A DNA stretch of 20,000 nucleotides from Sarea resinae (taxonomy: Eukaryota), in contig JAPEUD010000103.1 in assembly GCA_026026165.1 (NCBI GenBank), positions 46,313-66,312 of the forward strand. The letters run 5' to 3'. The notes beneath the pieces were generated by a model. It searched no databases. It saw only the letters and a program-made list of their open reading frames with translations, and had not been told where the DNA came from. The translations under genes were made by a program, and so were the position numbers. Each line of letters begins with the position of its first letter. Positions within the stretch are counted from its first letter, which is position 1. This document shows, piece by piece, positions 2,149-19,990 of the stretch.

Positions 2149-5023
2149 ATGAATTCTCACGAAGATCCGGGTGAAGCTTTGGCTAGGCTTCAAATTGCTG
2201 CTATCGAGAACGAGCGTCTCCGGCGCGAATACCTCGACTCTCTGGATGAGGTCAGCTCGACAGCTGATCTTGAGGCCCATGATGAACAGGTCATCTCCGA
2301 GATTACTTCCACCGCTTTCGACCCGCAAGGTTTGCACCGTCTTTTCCCCTAAGACGTACAAGAACTGACGGATCCTCAAGTTCACGAAGAATTAGACGTT
2401 AGCTTCCTCGGTGCTGCCGAGACTTCTAGCAACACTGATTCATCATTCTACGAAGACGGTTCCCACAATAACACCGCTGGTGCCGACGATGATAACGTGG
2501 TTGTAACAGGAACTGTTGATCAGACTCATACTACTCCTCCAGTGGCTACAGCTTTGATTCCATTTTCTGCCTGGCTCAAAAAACAGGCCAAAGAGCAGGC
2601 CATGGCACCTCTTAGTTCTCTCCAAGATGATCCAACGCCACACGTCCCAGCTCAGATATTCAGGCATCCGCTTGGGCCCCATGGACAAGGCTGGCCGGTG
2701 AAGACACTTTCTGTCGAGCTCTTTGAACGAATTACTTCACATCTTCCACGCGACGATGTTAAAACGTTGCGCCTTATTAACAAGGAGTTTGAAGCTCAGA
2801 TCTCGGGAGCATTCTTTCGCAACATTGTCGTCCCCTTTAGCTCGGAGATATATTCAATGTTAGAGTCAACTGACTCGGAAGACAAGAAGAAAGGCCAGCC
2901 AGTAGCCGAAGTGAGCAACGAAACGGGAACGACCAGTCTGCCGCCCGACCTGACTGCCGGTGAAGCCACGATGACCAACAAATTGGAGGCCTATTCCAAA
3001 GAAATCTATCGGCCAAGTCTCTCGAACGGCGGACTCAGTATCGAATACCTTACTAGTCTGAAGGCAGGTGTACGCCGAGACTTTGGTATGAAGATCTTTC
3101 AAGGATTTGGCCCTCATGTTCGACGCTTTGGCATGAGTTTTGAAGTCGATGAAGGTATGTCATCGGGTCTTTTATACGATGATAGATTGCTGACTTCGTG
3201 CAGAGCAACTTCGTCAAGTTCCCGAAAAGGTGGAATTCGAGACCCAGACAAGCTTTTGGGGCATGTATCAGTGGCCTCCTCAAACATACCGTCGTTTCAA
3301 GGACTGTGCTGGTCTGGAATATGTCGCCGATGAGACAAGCTCCATGAAGACGGCGTTCTCAAATCTATCTGAGGTCACTGAGCTGGCCATCTCGGTCGAT
3401 AACAAACTTGGCTTTTTGTCAGGCCCAGATATCTCGGAGCGCATCTTTGCGCAGAAAGCTTTGCCGCCAGTCTTCGGTCGATCAATGGTGCCCGATTCTA
3501 AGCTTCAAAAGAAACTAGATGAGTGGGTGTCTTGGGCTGAGCGCATTCTGGCCAATCGCACTTCTGATTATGAGCTGCCTCAAATTCGAGCTTTCTTGCG
3601 CGACATTATCTGTCCTTATAAGATTACTGTCTCATCGCTCGGTTATGCTGGCCGCCGTTATGCCAATATTCTTCCTCTGGGTATGAGTACTTTCAATAGC
3701 AGTGCTCCTAATCCTCTCCCAGATCATTGCCCTAGCATGAGTGACCACACAGGGACCAAAATCGACGAGCTTCCCCTTCGCCCTAACAATCTGACTGGAG
3801 GCCAGCAAGATTGGCTACTCGAGACGGAGTGGGCTCAACGAGCTTTCTTGACAAGTTACTGCATTGCCGTCATTGATAACGGAACTGCCTTCCAGAATGT
3901 TCACACCTTCAGCGTTGCAAGACTTTCCAGTCGGCACGTACCCCTCATCGGTCGCCGCGACTTTTGGGATGCTCTGCCGAACCTCAAGACGATTAGTCTT
4001 GGCGTGATCCCTGATTGGAGAGATGTCTACACGGGAGCGTCCGGAAAAGTCATGACGCCTAGTGTTGATCCGTCTGACGCTATTCTCAGAGTTGCTCCTG
4101 TGCTATTCGCATACATCTCGCGCTTGAAATCCGTCAAGACGCTGAAGTTTGGCTGGGTCGGTGGCGGCGAGTGCGCAGAGGGCACATATTCTCGCAATCA
4201 GCATATCCTTGCCGCACCCATCGTTCACAGCGCCTGGGAAATGTTTGCTGAGAACGACATCACCACGCAGATTCTAGAGCTCCCGCATGTCGAGCATCTT
4301 ACTCTGTCCAACTGCTGGGCAAGTCCCCAGGTCCTAGCGTCGTTCATCAAGGGTCTCAGCGCTGCATCCCTGAAGACCTTGACGATGGACTCCGTTTCTT
4401 TGACCGCAGTCTCCTATCTTAGCTCGGATCCGCCCATCGAAGCGCGCAACATCAGCCACATCTTCCCCAGCGTTCCACGCATCCCCGTCACAGCCCATGT
4501 TGATTCGCATGTCTTCCCCCCTCGGCCTCTCAGTCTGTCAGCAATCAGCTTCCTCAACCCTCAGCGCTTACGCCCTGGATCTTGGGCCGACACCATCGAC
4601 CAAATCACACCGGGCCAAACACTAGCACAGATGCGCTACCAACGCGGATTAATCGATGATGCGGCCGCGGAAAAGGACACGGCGTCCTCGCTGAAAAAGA
4701 TCTTTTTCAAGTCCTGCGGCTACGTCTATCTGCCCTTGGATTTTAGCTGCATGGATCAACGCTCCGTCGCGCCGCGTTTCATGACCGAATTGCCGGATTT
4801 TCTCAAAGCCTTAAAGGCTTGCCTGAGGACCTGCATGATGACGACAGATGATCTCAGCCTGGGCACGATCATCCAAGATCTTAGCTCTGTCGAATTGGAG
4901 GTCTTGGAGCAAGGCTTTGGTCTATTTGAGGGCTGGGGCGACAATCCCAAGCGCTATATCAACCGTGAAGATGGCTTCTTTGATGGAGGCACCGGCCGCT
5001 TTTCCGGCATCATTGTCTCTTAG
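2149..5023 (+). CDS. Fungal F-box domain protein, about 924 aa; join(2149..2329,2381..3154,3204..5023)
   Basis: ATG in good context (CACCATG). Intron 2330-2380 is GTTTGC..CTGAC..AAG and intron 3155-3203 is GTATGT..GCTGAC..CAG. Splicing joins three ORF-track segments into 2775 nt (925 codons). F-box-like segment LSVELFERITSHLPRDDVKTLRLINKEF, followed by LRR-like segments (LPNLKTISL, LPHVEHLTLSNC, LKTLTMDSV). Confidence 0.82.
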
Positions 5024-5185
5024 ACTCTCTATTGCTTGTCTCTGTCTCTTACCCTAACCTACTGCCTGAGGTGTGTGGCTTTGCACCACTTCCACAGGTC
5101 AGCAGGGGCAAGACGGGCCAACTAGGGAGTCTTTGACATTTTCTGTTTCCTCTGAGTGTCACTTTCTCCTCGCGGTATGAGCTTT

Positions 5186-5235
5186 CAGTACGGTATGATA
5201 CGATACGATGTGACACGATACGACGTGATACGAAT
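5186..5235. repeat. Degenerate (GATAC/GACAC)-type pentanucleotide microsatellite
   Basis: gatacgatacgatgtgacacgatacgacgtgatacga seen directly. Confidence 0.55.
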
Positions 5236-5909
5236 AAATGAGCCGCAGGGGTGTAACGTTGTTCTCACTTCACGCAACCATGATTGACGGCTACTTATCT
5301 CTCTATCTTTCTTGAGCATGGCATCCTTCCCCAATTCCGACCTTTCTCTTTTCCTCTTGCCTTTTTCTTTTGTCGTTTCTTCTACGCCATGAGGCGCCGG
5401 GTATTCGCAACTATGGGCACTGGAGTGAATAGCGGCTTTGTTCATTCTACTACTTACATGCGTACGTCATGTGCATGCATACAACACTGGTTGATTGTTT
5501 GTACTGTACTGTACTGCGTCGTTTGCTATCGTACAGTGTCATGACACGAAGCCGCACTCACCGCTATCCATCTCCTTCATATTCCCCATGTTTCCCTTTT
5601 TTTTCCCTTTCCAAGTCTTTATTTGCGACGTATCAGTACTTGTGGCAGACTCATTCGCCTCGAGTGATCGTCCATAAGTCGAGTCGAGTCGGGTACGATG
5701 AAACGCACCCCCATCATCCCTTTCTTTCATTCTTTTACTTCTTTCATTCCCTCCCGACGGCCACACATAGGATAACAGGTGGCGGCCCCGCTATCTACAG
5801 CCTACCTGCCCCTTGGGATCGAGTCGAGGGTGTTGTTGCACAGGAAGGAATTCAAGCTCCAATCTTTCTTTTTTTCATCCAGAGAGAGGGGGGGACGGGG
5901 CATGGTACA

Positions 5910-6168
5910 GATCGCGGGCAATCCGCTTGATCTAGACAGGGGTTCCAGGATCGCGGGTAATCCGCTTGATCAGGAGAACATTACAGATCGCGGGCAATCC
6001 GCTGGATCTTAGATAGATATAAAAAACACCCAATAGGCAGATCTTGTTGCCTACCTAGCTAGCCTAGCTTAGCTGGGGGCCGAGCTAGATGGAGTTCAGG
6101 TAGAAAGATAGATAGCCACTCAAAAAAAAAAATGGAAAAATCATAGATCGCGGGGAATCCGCTTGATC
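5910..6168. repeat. Four direct copies of the 23-nt hairpin-forming repeat GATCGCGGGNAATCCGCTKGATC
   Basis: Copies at 5910-5932, 5949-5971, 5986-6008 and 6146-6168, separated by unrelated spacers of 16, 14 and 137 nt. Confidence 0.92.
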
Positions 6169-6289
6169 TCTATCAAATCAAACCTACCTACTCAGTCTTG
6201 TAATCTCGGTATCGGCATCTGTCTCGATGCCCTACAATAAACTAATAAACTACCTATAGTATGGCTCGCGATTTCATTCACTTGACTCA

Positions 6290-6335
6290 GGTAGATAGAT
6301 AAATAGATAGATAGACTGATAGAGAGATAGATAGG
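6290..6335. repeat. Degenerate (TAGA)n microsatellite
   Basis: gtagatagataaatagatagatagactgatagagagatagatagg seen directly. Confidence 0.6.
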
Positions 6336-6847
6336 AAGACCCTCGATTTATTGGATTTGACTTGATTCGATTCGACCTAGATAGCACACAGAACGACAGA
6401 AACAAAACGAGCATCTATATACACCGATTTCGAGCAAGAACTCACGAAACGGGACAAAGGAAAAAAGGAAGAAAGAGGAAACTATGAAAAAGGTGGCCCC
6501 GGGGGGAGAATAGTGAGATGATTGATTGGACGGATGGAGGGAGGGAAGGGATGGATGTGGGGATGTGGGTGGGGGGGAGGGAAAAGGCGATTCGTTGCAT
6601 CAATGCTAGCCGTCTTTTGATGGTACATTTTGCGGTGGTGGTTGAGGGTGTGAAACCCGAGGGGATGAAGAGGGTGGGTGGATGTTGGTGTTGGGGGTTA
6701 CTAGGCTGGCTTTTGATCGTCTTCAGGGTTTTTTTTAATCTTGGTCGGCTGGCTTTTCTTCATGCACAGATAACCTAGGATACCGGGGGGAGCGGAGGAA
6801 GAATCATGGTAATGGTGGCGATGGTGGTGATGAGGGGTGTGGGACAA

Positions 6848-8106
6848 CTAGGCAGAGTCGCGCGTGTATTTCCCGACGACGATGCAATGGTCTCGCTCGA
6901 AGGGTTCTGTAAGGCAGAAGTGTTAGCGGTCTTGAGAGCGATAGAAGAGAAAAGGGTAAGGGGCGCGAGGGGTGGAGAAAAGAAATAAAACCTACCCAGC
7001 GTAAGCTGTTCCAGGGGCTTGATCCGATCATCGCGCATCTTCTGGACCTCCCGTGCAAAGACGGCCTCGGGAGCCGCTGTGCTGTCGATACAGTTCGCCT
7101 TGATGGAAATGACGACGCCGCCGTTGTTCTTCAGGAACAGATGCGCGTTCAAGGCCACGATACGTGCTTGATCGGGTTGGGCCACATCAGCGAAGATGAC
7201 GTCCACCATGCCGACCAGCATGCGGTACTTGAGCGGGTGACGGGCGTCCTCGATGATGGGGATAACGTTGGTGCGGTGCGTCGCCATGTTGATCAAGTCA
7301 CGACCGGATCGGTGGGAGAACTCGACAGCGAAAACGGTGCCCGTGGGGCCGACAATGTCAGCAACGTGAGAGACCGAGGTACCGGAGGCGGCACCAAGAT
7401 AGAGCACCTTGGCGCCGGGGCGGATGTAAATTTCGTCGAGACCGCCGAGGATACCGGCTGCAAGCTTGCTGCGGAAGGGATTCCACACGCGGTATTCGAT
7501 CTTGGTGGCTGGGGGCGCGGCCTCGCCGTTGGTGGCTGCGGAGGATTCGATGGCGATGCGCTTCTCGCCGTAGACGGATTCGCCAGGAGTCAAATTCTTG
7601 GTGACGAGGAGATCCTCTTTGCCGTGGGCAACGAAGACGCCGGCATGACGATGAGGTTCCTAGTATTGTCAATCATTGGTTTTTGGAGATGGACTCCTGG
7701 CTTAAGAGGCATACAATGACGGTTCTTTGACCTCCCTTGGCTCCACCACGACCTCCTCGGCCTCCTCCACGTCCACCGCGGCCACGGTCACCTCCTCGAG
7801 GAGCTCCACGGCCACCACGTCCACCTCTCATTGGGGCACCGCCTAGGCTCAGTCAGCTTCAAAGCTCGATATCATTTCTCTGATAGCGATCTCGAGAATC
7901 GCATGTTTCGAGATGGCGATTTCGTAACTCTCAAAACAGAATCAGTGCCGATAGAGATGAGAAAATGGCTAACCTCTTCCACCACCACGACCGCCTCTGC
8001 CTCCAAAACCACCACGATCGCCGCCTCCACGACCTCCGAAACCACCACGATCACCCCCTCCACGGCCTCCAAAACCGCCGCGGCCTCCTCTAGGTGTAAA
8101 GGCCAT
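6848..8106 (-). CDS. NOP1: rRNA 2'-O-methyltransferase fibrillarin, 327 aa; complement(join(6848..6906,6996..7659,7715..7842,7974..8106))
   Basis: N-terminal RGG/GAR domain ([14 protein letters not shown]...), then [66 protein letters not shown] and [12 protein letters not shown]. Three GT-AG introns with branch points; 984 nt total, in frame. Confidence 0.98.
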
Positions 8107-8735
8107 TCTGAATAAGCGTTCCTCTGATGATGTTGATACTGAGGTAAGGGACGCTCTGTGGTGACGATGCTTGTCCTGGTGTCGCTCACTTTTCTTCCGT
8201 AGCAGCAGCAGCAACAAGCAACGACTTTCTTCACTTTCACTCTTTCTCGCGCTAGTCGATGTTCGCTTATGGCAACTTTTCCTCTCGGCTTTCCTAGCGA
8301 ATGGCCTAAGCGAAGAGCCGCATCGGCCTCGACCTTAGCCTACGGAGTACAGCGAGGAGAGATCGAGACAGTATCTGGTGACTGGAGCGTGAATGCTGGT
8401 GAGAACATGAAGGCAATTCGATCAATTACAATCATTTCAGTATTCAACCCATTTATGATACTTTTACGAAAGAGTGATGAATGACAAAGCATGGATCAGC
8501 TTGTAGACAGACGGAGAATTTGCATATTGCTGTAGAAATGGATAGGTCCTCGTGCAGACTTCGTCCTCCTTCAGGGCTACAACCCTACCTCCACTGAGAT
8601 TCTCGCTTAGCCACACTCGCTCACCACCACTACCGGGGTCGGCCAAGATTGAAGGAAGTTCGCAAGAAACGAACGAGTCGACTTGACAACGACCTCACAC
8701 GACGACACGACAATCACCATCACCCAACAGCCAAG
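8107..8735. promoter_or_regulatory. Shared divergent promoter region of NOP1 and RPL17
   Basis: 629 bp between the two divergent ATGs. Contains mirrored TCGCTTAG(G)CCA motifs (8302-8313 on minus, 8603-8613 on plus), mirrored TCGACTWG motifs (8252-8259 on minus, 8678-8685 on plus) and ACCCTACC at 8582-8589. Confidence 0.6.
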
Positions 8736-9681
8736 ATGGTGAGTTCTGATCCTGCGAAACCCATTTCGAATATAGAATCCCCCGCCGTCCTTTTCGTGCC
8801 CACGATCTTGTTTCCAGGGCTGCCTCAGTTGTCTCAATGTCCGGATCTTCAAAGACGACCTTGCTAACACCACGGCGCTCCTCAGGTTCGGTACGCCGCC
8901 ACCTCGATCGAGTCCTCGAAATCTGCCAAAGCGCACGGACAGTACCTGAGGGTTTCCTTCAAGAACACCCGTGAGGCATCGCGCGCCATTGCCGGAAAGA
9001 AGGTCGACCGCGCCATCGCTTACCTCGAGAATGTCATCGCTCACAAGGAGGCCGTCCCGATGAGGAGATATGCCGGCAGCACTGGCCGTACCGCCCAGGG
9101 TGAGTTCCTTCTTGAGAGAACTCAGAAGCGTACCGCAAGGATGGGAGCTGTAGAGAAACGGGGAGGACTGCGCATGGAAGGGATTCAATATGGCAGAACA
9201 GTGCTGAGATGATTTCGTGATTACAGGCAAGAACCTCGGCGTCTCCAAGGCCCGCTGGCCCGTCAAGTCCGCCGAGTTCCTTCTCGGTCTCCTCCGCAAC
9301 GCTGAGGCCAATGCCGACACCAAGGGTCTCGACACCGGTAACCTGATCGTTAAGCACATCCAAGTCAACCAGGCACCCAAGCAGCGAAGACGCACATACC
9401 GTGCCCACGGCCGAGTAAGCGGACCCCATCTTCCGTTGTTTTGCTTGGATTGGCACAGCATGTGTCAAGGCTCAAGACGAGCTTTTTTGGCTATCTGTGG
9501 ACCGGGCTAATCCACTTGTGAACAGATCAACCCCTACATGTCCAACCCGTGCCACATCGAGCTCATCCTGACTGAGGGCGAGGAAGTCGTTCAAAAGTCC
9601 CCCCAATCCGTCGAACGCGCCGTCCACCTTAGCTCCCGACAGCGTGGTGCCCGCCGTCAACGCGCCATCACGGCCGCTTAG
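8736..9681 (+). CDS. RPL17: 60S ribosomal protein L17 (uL22), 186 aa; join(8736..8738,8886..9099,9227..9414,9526..9681)
   Basis: ATG-only first exon. Spliced protein reads MVRYAAT...[11 protein letters not shown]...[17 protein letters not shown]...[16 protein letters not shown]...[49 protein letters not shown] donors and CAG acceptors; 561 nt in frame. Confidence 0.98.
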
Positions 9682-19400: not shown

Positions 19401-19442
19401 GGGGTCTACCTTACGGGGTCTACTTTACGGGGTCTACCTTAT
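19401..19442. repeat. Tandem 14-nt minisatellite x3 (GGGGTCTACYTTAY)
   Basis: Units at 19401-19414, 19415-19428 and 19429-19442. Confidence 0.85.
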
Positions 19443-19970: not shown

Positions 19971-19990
19971 GGGGGGGGGGGGGGGGGGGG
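19971..19990. repeat. Poly-G tract (20 nt)
   Basis: Seen directly. Confidence 0.85.

Follow-up and report, generated by a model that had tools for sequence, protein, structure and literature searches.

A four-copy array of a 23-nt imperfect dyad between convergent F-box-family and fibrillarin genes at a fungal nuclear locus: a candidate cluster of protein-binding sites

In the 20-kb stretch of DNA analysed here (the window), two genes meet tail to tail. On the minus strand we identified fibrillarin in an open reading frame (ORF) at 6775-7659 (Pfam E = 7e-97), with an intron preceding the last exon, and on the plus strand an ORF ending at 5023 whose named relatives are F-box domain proteins. 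Position 5023 is taken as the true stop of this F-box-family gene because the C-terminus aligns to at most 8 residues from the end of a 653-aa relative. Given this stop on the plus strand and the fibrillarin stop at 6848 on the minus strand, the two genes converge across a gap of 1824 bp. The first-pass annotation had placed a repeat array between convergent F-box and fibrillarin 3' ends; the Pfam match on the minus strand, the F-box relatives on the plus strand and the facing stops agree with that placement. Codon-usage log-odds, trained on the window's own genes, are negative or about zero over 5000-6450, and none of the 15 ORFs of at least 40 aa in the gap matches Pfam at E <= 0.1.

The remaining genes of the window are ordinary: PAN3, uL22/RPL17, an HbpS-like protein, phenol hydroxylase, an MFS transporter and D-arabinono-1,4-lactone oxidase. 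A tRNA scan of the window returned no genes. The proteins next closest to the lactone oxidase are at most 66% identical and come from lichen-forming fungi, Xylona and Dothideomycetes; for the F-box-family protein, identity to relatives peaks at 48% where a third of the length is aligned and is about 42% across two thirds. The source is a filamentous ascomycete from an isolated Pezizomycotina lineage without close sequenced relatives. Fibrillarin and uL22/RPL17 (plus strand, 8868-9507, split by an intron) are divergent neighbours (6848-9507) and, as two ribosome-biogenesis genes so arranged, they probably share a promoter region. At the other side of the gap, ACCCTAACC at 5047-5055 is one and a half telomere-type repeats; CCCTAA occurs four times on the plus strand of the window and never on the minus strand. 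The idea that the 9-mer marks a telomerase RNA was rejected, as it lies 25 nt past the F-box stop codon, about one such 9-mer is expected per window (our own arithmetic) and Rfam gave no telomerase match.

The array that is the subject of this report starts 886 nt past the F-box-family stop and ends 679 nt past the fibrillarin stop (Table 1). The first AATAAA of each gene lies at 5233 on the F-box side (plus strand) and at 6352 on the fibrillarin side (minus strand). The array is beyond both, and so it is probably outside both mature mRNAs.

Table 1. Repeat copies, neighbouring signals and flanking genes, in window coordinates
Feature	Position	Strand	Remarks
F-box-family gene, last coding stretch	3194..5023	+	stop 5021-5023
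Intergenic gap holding the array	5024..6847		1824 bp; no sign of coding capacity
Repeat copy 1	5910..5932	+	N=C, K=T; TACA before, TAG after
Repeat copy 2	5949..5971	+	N=T, K=T
Repeat copy 3	5986..6008	+	N=C, K=G; TACA before
TATAAA	6018..6023	+	9 nt past copy 3; one of only 3 on the plus strand in 20 kb
Separate short hairpin	6032..6055		8 pairs, GATC in loop; between copies 3 and 4
A11 tract	6121..6131	+	between copies 3 and 4
Repeat copy 4	6146..6168	+	N=G, K=T; at tip of longer imperfect hairpin, about 6079-6210
Two AATAAA hexamers	6236..6249 (6236, 6244)	+	67 and 75 nt past copy 4
Fibrillarin (NOP1), 3' part	6848..7659	-	last exon ends ...GKYTRDSA; TAG stop 6848-6850

The motif GATCGCGGGNAATCCGCTKGATC has exactly four matches in the window, all on the plus strand. 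When up to three mismatches were allowed, the 20 kb held no further match, and none of 200 dinucleotide-preserving shuffles yielded any. Copies of the 23-mer in inverted orientation number zero in the 20 kb. A 23-mer occurring four times in the same orientation had been reported at first inspection, and the exact matches and the shuffles bear this out. Aligned together with 20-nt flanks, the copies are constant at 21 of 23 columns; the variable unit positions are 10 (C/T/C/G) and 19 (T/T/G/T), and similarity between copies ends sharply at the boundaries of the 23-nt unit. Each unit is an imperfect dyad with the layout GATC-GCGG-N5-CCGC-TT-GATC, and the G+C content of the units is 57-65% against a local background of 43%. 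In a 20-kb scan for degenerate copies, nothing above 15 of the 21 specified bases followed the four 21/21 sites. Sites at 14-15 of 21 consist of the reverse strands of the units themselves and one site at 6326, and sites at 13 or more number 29 in the window, near the shuffled level (mean 16, maximum 29). The repeat feature is real and statistically solid. As a four-copy array it is a well-documented curiosity, short of a discovery.

A single exact match to the unit was found in 596 Gb of bacterial and archaeal genomes, at one site inside an ORF on an Erythrobacteraceae MAG contig; we treat it as chance because 0.14-0.24 matches are expected by chance. A blastn search of 5880-6200 against plasmid and phage collections gave no match. 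CRISPR arrays have spacers of similar length (about 26-72 nt), belong to prokaryotes and usually have cas genes nearby. The array had been called CRISPR-like in shape only, and rightly so: its spacers measure 16, 14 and 137 nt, it lies at a fungal nuclear locus with a spliced fibrillarin gene, and none of the window's 114 ORFs of at least 70 aa carries a cas domain.

The centres of successive copies are 39, 37 and 160 bp apart. The two short spacers and four outer flanks give 15 pairwise comparisons, and in every one of them over 40% of 2000 shuffles equalled or exceeded the observed score; the spacers are unrelated, as far as strings this short can reveal. TRF describes 5906-6008 as a repeat of 39-nt period with 2.7 copies and 79% matches, a score that is carried by the 23-mers. 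A slippage-type tandem repeat has homology over its whole period, and here the DNA between the cores is no more alike than shuffles. The earlier description of the spacers as unrelated, unlike those of slippage repeats, stands despite the TRF period.

The same measurements bear on the proposal that the array is an old, functionless tandem duplication of a unit of about 38 bp, or a minisatellite, in which the identity of the 23-mers is a historical accident. The TRF period and the almost equal first two spacings are what such a history would leave behind, and short tandem repeats are frequent in the intergenic DNA of the window (for example at 5196-5233 and 19401-19441). It would require, however, that homologous spacers diverged to chance level while 21 of 23 unit positions stayed fixed, which neutral decay does not do, and copy 4 sits 160 bp off with unrelated flanks. 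We regard this origin as very unlikely.

A further proposal takes the repeat for part of a small or decayed gene in which the peptide IAGNPLD is reiterated. Frame +1 gives this peptide in all four copies, every difference between copies is a synonymous third-position change, and copies 1 and 2 share a frame within a 36-codon ATG ORF (5902-6012). Against this, the copies fall in phases 0, 0, 1 and 2, which leaves copies 3 and 4 out of frame; the 14-nt spacer is too short for an intron; the codon-usage score is -11 to -16 over 5930-6140; and the 78-aa ORF has no Pfam match. In the translation of the repeat ORF, neither a signal peptide nor processing sites can be seen. The three phases, the lack of room for an intron in the 14-nt spacer and the strongly negative codon-usage score defeat the coding interpretation, to which we give almost no credence.

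Each copy folds with 4 + 4 base pairs, a 5-nt loop and a 2-nt bulge, so the pairing of GATC with GATC and GCGG with CCGC that was first proposed by eye is recovered by folding in every copy. Treated as RNA, either strand of the unit gives -8 kcal/mol with z between -1.7 and -3.0, a stability matched by 3-15 of 200 shuffles; treated as DNA, the unit gives -4.7 and -4.6 kcal/mol (z -1.4 and -1.8). All 8 base pairs are constant in all four copies, so there is no covariation to observe and covariation speaks neither for nor against the structure. It had been argued that the hairpin is indicated by differences falling in unpaired positions. Both variable sites are indeed unpaired, yet the argument is weak, given that two sites fall by chance among the 7 unpaired positions of 23 with p = 0.083 and that both are also synonymous third-codon positions in frame +1; variation among the copies thus does not point to a hairpin in particular.

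Longer folds include the array as a whole. The 301-nt array region folds better than shuffles (z -2.7 on the plus strand and -4.3 on the minus strand), although these z-scores are inflated because palindromic repeats pair among themselves. Copy 4 tops the longer imperfect hairpin listed in Table 1, and for 6056-6240 the folding energy is -53 kcal/mol (z -2.6), a stability that none of 200 shuffles attains; the arms of this hairpin are largely GATA/CTAC-type simple sequence, which is common in this gap. Rfam has no match at gathering score anywhere in the window, and at E <= 10 it gives, over 5000-6900, only four chance-level matches (E 1.9-5.2), none of them on the units.

These folds raise the possibility that the units act as RNA stem-loops, that is, as protein-recognition hairpins in a long 3' UTR, in read-through RNA or in an unannotated noncoding RNA (ncRNA). 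The same bulged hairpin forms in every copy and on either strand, both variable sites are unpaired, the region and the copy 4 hairpin are more stable than shuffles, and the TATAAA before copy 4 and the AATAAA after it could delimit a transcript of about 200 nt with this copy inside. Such a transcript would, however, leave copies 1-3 upstream of the TATAAA, and the array lies past the first poly(A) hexamer of both genes. The stability of single hairpins is modest by comparison with shuffles, the region z-scores carry the inflation noted above, the 8 pairs are unvarying and Rfam is silent at gathering score. In addition, the loop and bulge letters are as constant as the stems. An RNA role seems to us unlikely, if a little less so than the readings set aside above.

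Four copies at 21/23 identity with unrelated spacers imply either strong constraint on the 23-mer or units that arrived independently of their spacers. One rival reading takes the array for a leftover of mobile DNA, in which the units would be transposase-binding direct repeats from one long terminal repeat of a decayed DNA transposon (in the IR-DR style of Tc1/mariner elements), or insertions of a small palindromic mobile unit. Near-identical units with sharp edges, non-homologous spacers, a single orientation, and three close copies with a fourth 160 bp away would all fit. Tc1/mariner ends start with TA and then CAG, and TA followed by CAG stands ahead of copies 1 and 3. The whole array also falls within a 606-bp segment (5896-6501) that has a 6-nt direct repeat and 6-nt inverted ends at its borders.

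Several observations count against a mobile origin. The TA-CAG lead-in is found at only two of the four copies, the 20 kb contain no inverted copy, and none of the 114 ORFs of at least 70 aa in the window carries a transposase, reverse-transcriptase, integrase or helicase domain. The 606-bp segment is the best of 12 candidates from a search for TIR, TSD and LTR boundaries (a GGGGGA direct repeat plus the 6-nt inverted ends, 5890-5901 and 6496-6507), but the pair is weak and may be chance because both ends lie in G-runs. No candidate boundary combined a 5-nt duplication with at least 9 of 12 inverted-end matches; each of 10 shuffles gave 0-1. A dead relic should also decay like its spacers, and we know of no mechanism that spreads 23-bp units in nuclear genomes. 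On the whole, a mobile origin seems unlikely.

Among known systems, the direct repeats of IR-DR Tc1/mariner elements have a similar layout: repeats of 20-30 bp that share an orientation and are separated by unique DNA, one of them about 160 bp off, and the TA-CAG start (in the array, at two copies). The array differs from them in having four copies rather than two, and neither an inverted partner end nor a transposase remnant. More specific element classes were considered and rejected. A MITE or other TIR DNA transposon, with inverted ends and a target-site duplication, is contradicted by the zero reverse copies and by a best boundary of only 6 + 6 nt in G-runs. A solo LTR would have TATAAA and AATAAA in the order seen here, but among the 12 candidates none has TG...CA ends together with a 4-6 bp duplication. 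The 3' end of a Helitron has a hairpin about 10-12 nt upstream of CTRR, inserts between A and T, and in autonomous copies accompanies a Rep/helicase gene. A loose resemblance to such an end had been suggested from copy 1, where CTAG overlaps the 3' end of the unit. The suggestion fails: CTAG is found at this copy alone, no gap separates it from the hairpin, the next base is A and not T, and no Rep/helicase domain was found. CTAG also clusters elsewhere in the array, with four sites within 35 nt (6055-6088) after the separate short hairpin.

Bacterial REP/BIME sequences and the GC clusters of mitochondria are likewise short, G+C-rich imperfect palindromes repeated between convergent genes. Those are prokaryotic or organellar, whereas the array lies at a nuclear fungal locus with spliced genes and is known in four copies. 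By extension, the 23-mer might represent an undescribed family of short hairpin-forming nuclear elements in a fungal lineage that has been sampled little, 23-bp modules with unique spacers between convergent genes, which would stop or insulate colliding transcription in a REP-like manner, either as protein-bound DNA or as RNA hairpins. We consider such a family quite improbable. If the unit did prove to belong to a dispersed family, fungal nuclear DNA would offer a rare case of a short, REP-like palindromic element.

Of the two ways to account for near-identical units amid unrelated spacers, we favour constraint, and specifically constraint on a binding site, because of the CGG/CCG dyad, the G+C-rich units and the promoter-like surroundings, and because decayed copies, inverted partners and transposon proteins are all absent. 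We thus put forward the four units, tentatively and as something short of probable, as a candidate homotypic cluster of binding sites for one sequence-specific protein that binds double-stranded DNA, maintained by selection. In this scheme, one protein would bind the imperfect dyad of each unit, probably as a dimer. Its binding core would be the inverted CGG/CCG triplets five bases apart, an architecture that fungal Zn2Cys6 factors use, and the GATC ends may supply a second contact. Selection on binding would hold 21 of the 23 positions while leaving the DNA between sites free to change. Two modes of action can be envisaged. From upstream, the cluster may activate a short, as yet unannotated ncRNA that starts after the TATAAA at 6018; a documented precedent is the qLRE of Neurospora frq, a factor-binding element on the 3' side of a gene that drives an antisense RNA (PMC10278383). 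Alternatively, the bound protein may form a barrier between the two convergent genes. Protein binding, the identity of the protein, the consequences of binding and both modes of action are things that we infer.

The first-pass annotation had offered a protein-binding site, an RNA stem-loop module or transposon termini as explanations. The protein-binding site ranks best on account of the dyad and its constancy, and the RNA stem-loop keeps some probability; transposon termini are weakened by the lack of an inverted copy and of a transposase.

Some features of the array sit uneasily with binding sites. The invariance of the units is tighter than that of typical transcription-factor sites and fits recently copied DNA equally well. 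A symmetric dimer site does not need all copies to share one orientation, the spacings of 39, 37 and 160 bp are out of helical phase, and, placed between two 3' ends, the cluster has no gene that it evidently targets. In AT-rich DNA, TATAAA and AATAAA may also occur near the array by chance. As a sequence feature, a Zn2Cys6 site contains two CGG triplets, inverted, everted or direct, at a spacing specific to the factor. The pair CGG-N5-CCG is present in all four copies but is not in itself enriched: the window holds 8 where 5.6 are expected, and 43 of 200 shuffles have at least 8. The triplets are therefore a lead rather than a test.

To our knowledge, and judged by eye, none of the motifs for Reb1, Abf1, CreA/Mig1, CCAAT, the B-box, AlcR, Nab3/Nrd1, or the Vts1 and Rnt1 loops fits all four copies. 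The yeast UAS-GAL has four Gal4 sites of the form CGG-N11-CCG. Zn2Cys6 factors in general are described as binding pairs of CGG triplets at a factor-specific spacing in a passage on Roc1 (bioRxiv 10.1101/2021.06.08.446897), and a passage of PMC4620465 gives CGGN11CCG, like that of Gal4, as the site of Neurospora CLR-2. Clusters of the UAS type resemble the array in bringing several CGG/CCG dyads at fixed spacing within a few hundred base pairs, with unrelated DNA between the sites and a TATA element near. The array departs from the Gal4 and CLR-2 clusters in its triplet spacing of 5, in the constancy of its internal bases and of 4-6 flanking bases, in the single orientation of its copies and in its position between two 3' ends and not at divergent promoters.

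In the literature searched, the string CGGN5CCG was not found, and CGG-N5-CCG turned up only as one count of promoter occurrences and within a quoted, longer CLR-1 motif, with no factor assigned to this site. Two 13-mers of the unit had no occurrence there, and its 9-mers matched unrelated primers only. The CLR-1 site itself, given as CGGN5CGGNCCG in PMC4620465, was rejected as a match, as the unit lacks the third triplet in either printed version and on either strand. The two printed versions disagree with each other: in bioRxiv 10.1101/2021.06.08.446897 the motif is CGG-N5-CCG-N-CGG, and the two are not reverse complements.

A special case of the binding-site explanation is that the units are light-response elements (LREs), bound by the White Collar Complex (WCC) through paired GATC cores and driving a light-induced antisense RNA or ncRNA. 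Each unit has two GATC 19 nt apart and a central AATC. A factor-binding element of this kind can sit in a 3' region, as illustrated by the qLRE in the 3' region of Neurospora frq, which is described in PMC10278383 as driving the antisense transcript qrf; paired GATC/GATN cores are common to the array and to these elements, and the qLRE too acts from the 3' side of a gene. According to passages of PMC7493669 and PMC6628569, LREs are two imperfect GATN repeats with the consensus GATNC--CGATN or GATCGA, and the WCC motif is given as "centered on GATC or ATCG" in a passage of PMC12890800. The gaps verified within GATNC--CGATN, in the relevant passage of PMC7493669, are 3 and 11 nt, with the same N in both halves.

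Against this consensus the units read GATCA-N13-CGATC on the minus strand, 9 of the 10 specified bases with a gap of 13 nt, and GATCGC instead of GATCGA on the plus strand. The agreement with the consensus is incomplete, and the gap differs from the verified ones. Furthermore, GATN is very low in information, and the constant GCGG/CCGC core is left unexplained by WCC binding. We also compared the units with the published frq LRE probe and rejected the likeness as evidence: 9 of 10 bases agree with part of the probe, yet of 132 tiles of the window 8 equal or beat that score, which is chance level. Overall, identification of the units with WCC elements appears highly improbable.

For the barrier mode of the binding-site cluster, the nearest comparison is with the roadblock sites of Reb1, Rap1 and Abf1, which like the array are tightly specified and placed in gene-free DNA where read-through from neighbouring genes would collide. 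Copy 2 alone reads CGGGTAA, which we take to be the Reb1 core; the other three copies differ at the T. The array differs from Reb1 roadblocks in that a single copy carries the core. PMC5052057 reports that general regulatory factors, when bound, block Pol II. Most plausibly, the array adds one more case, unusually located, to the known homotypic clusters of factor-binding dyads. Should the units be binding sites, the 23-mer would be an unusually sharp, fully specified recognition sequence in an uncultured, deep-branching Pezizomycotina lineage, and the two housekeeping genes would have a regulatory or barrier element hidden between them.

Other short sequence features of the window are recorded here in their own right. 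A perfect TGACTCA, a Gcn4/AP-1-type site, is found at 6283-6289 and is the sole one on the plus strand of the window. It is followed by a (TAGA)n microsatellite with related AGATAG runs (6292-6334, and also 6106-6115); 9 of the 16 plus-strand AGATAG of the window are in this gap. The tandem repeat at 5196-5233 has a 15-nt unit (2.5 copies, 86% matches) and lies about 170 nt downstream of the F-box stop, immediately ahead of the AATAAA at 5233. Near the end of the window, the non-coding tandem repeat at 19401-19441 has the 14-nt unit GGGGTCTACCTTAC in 2.9 copies with 92% matches, and the TRF scan also picked out a run of 20 G at 19971-19990, at the window end.
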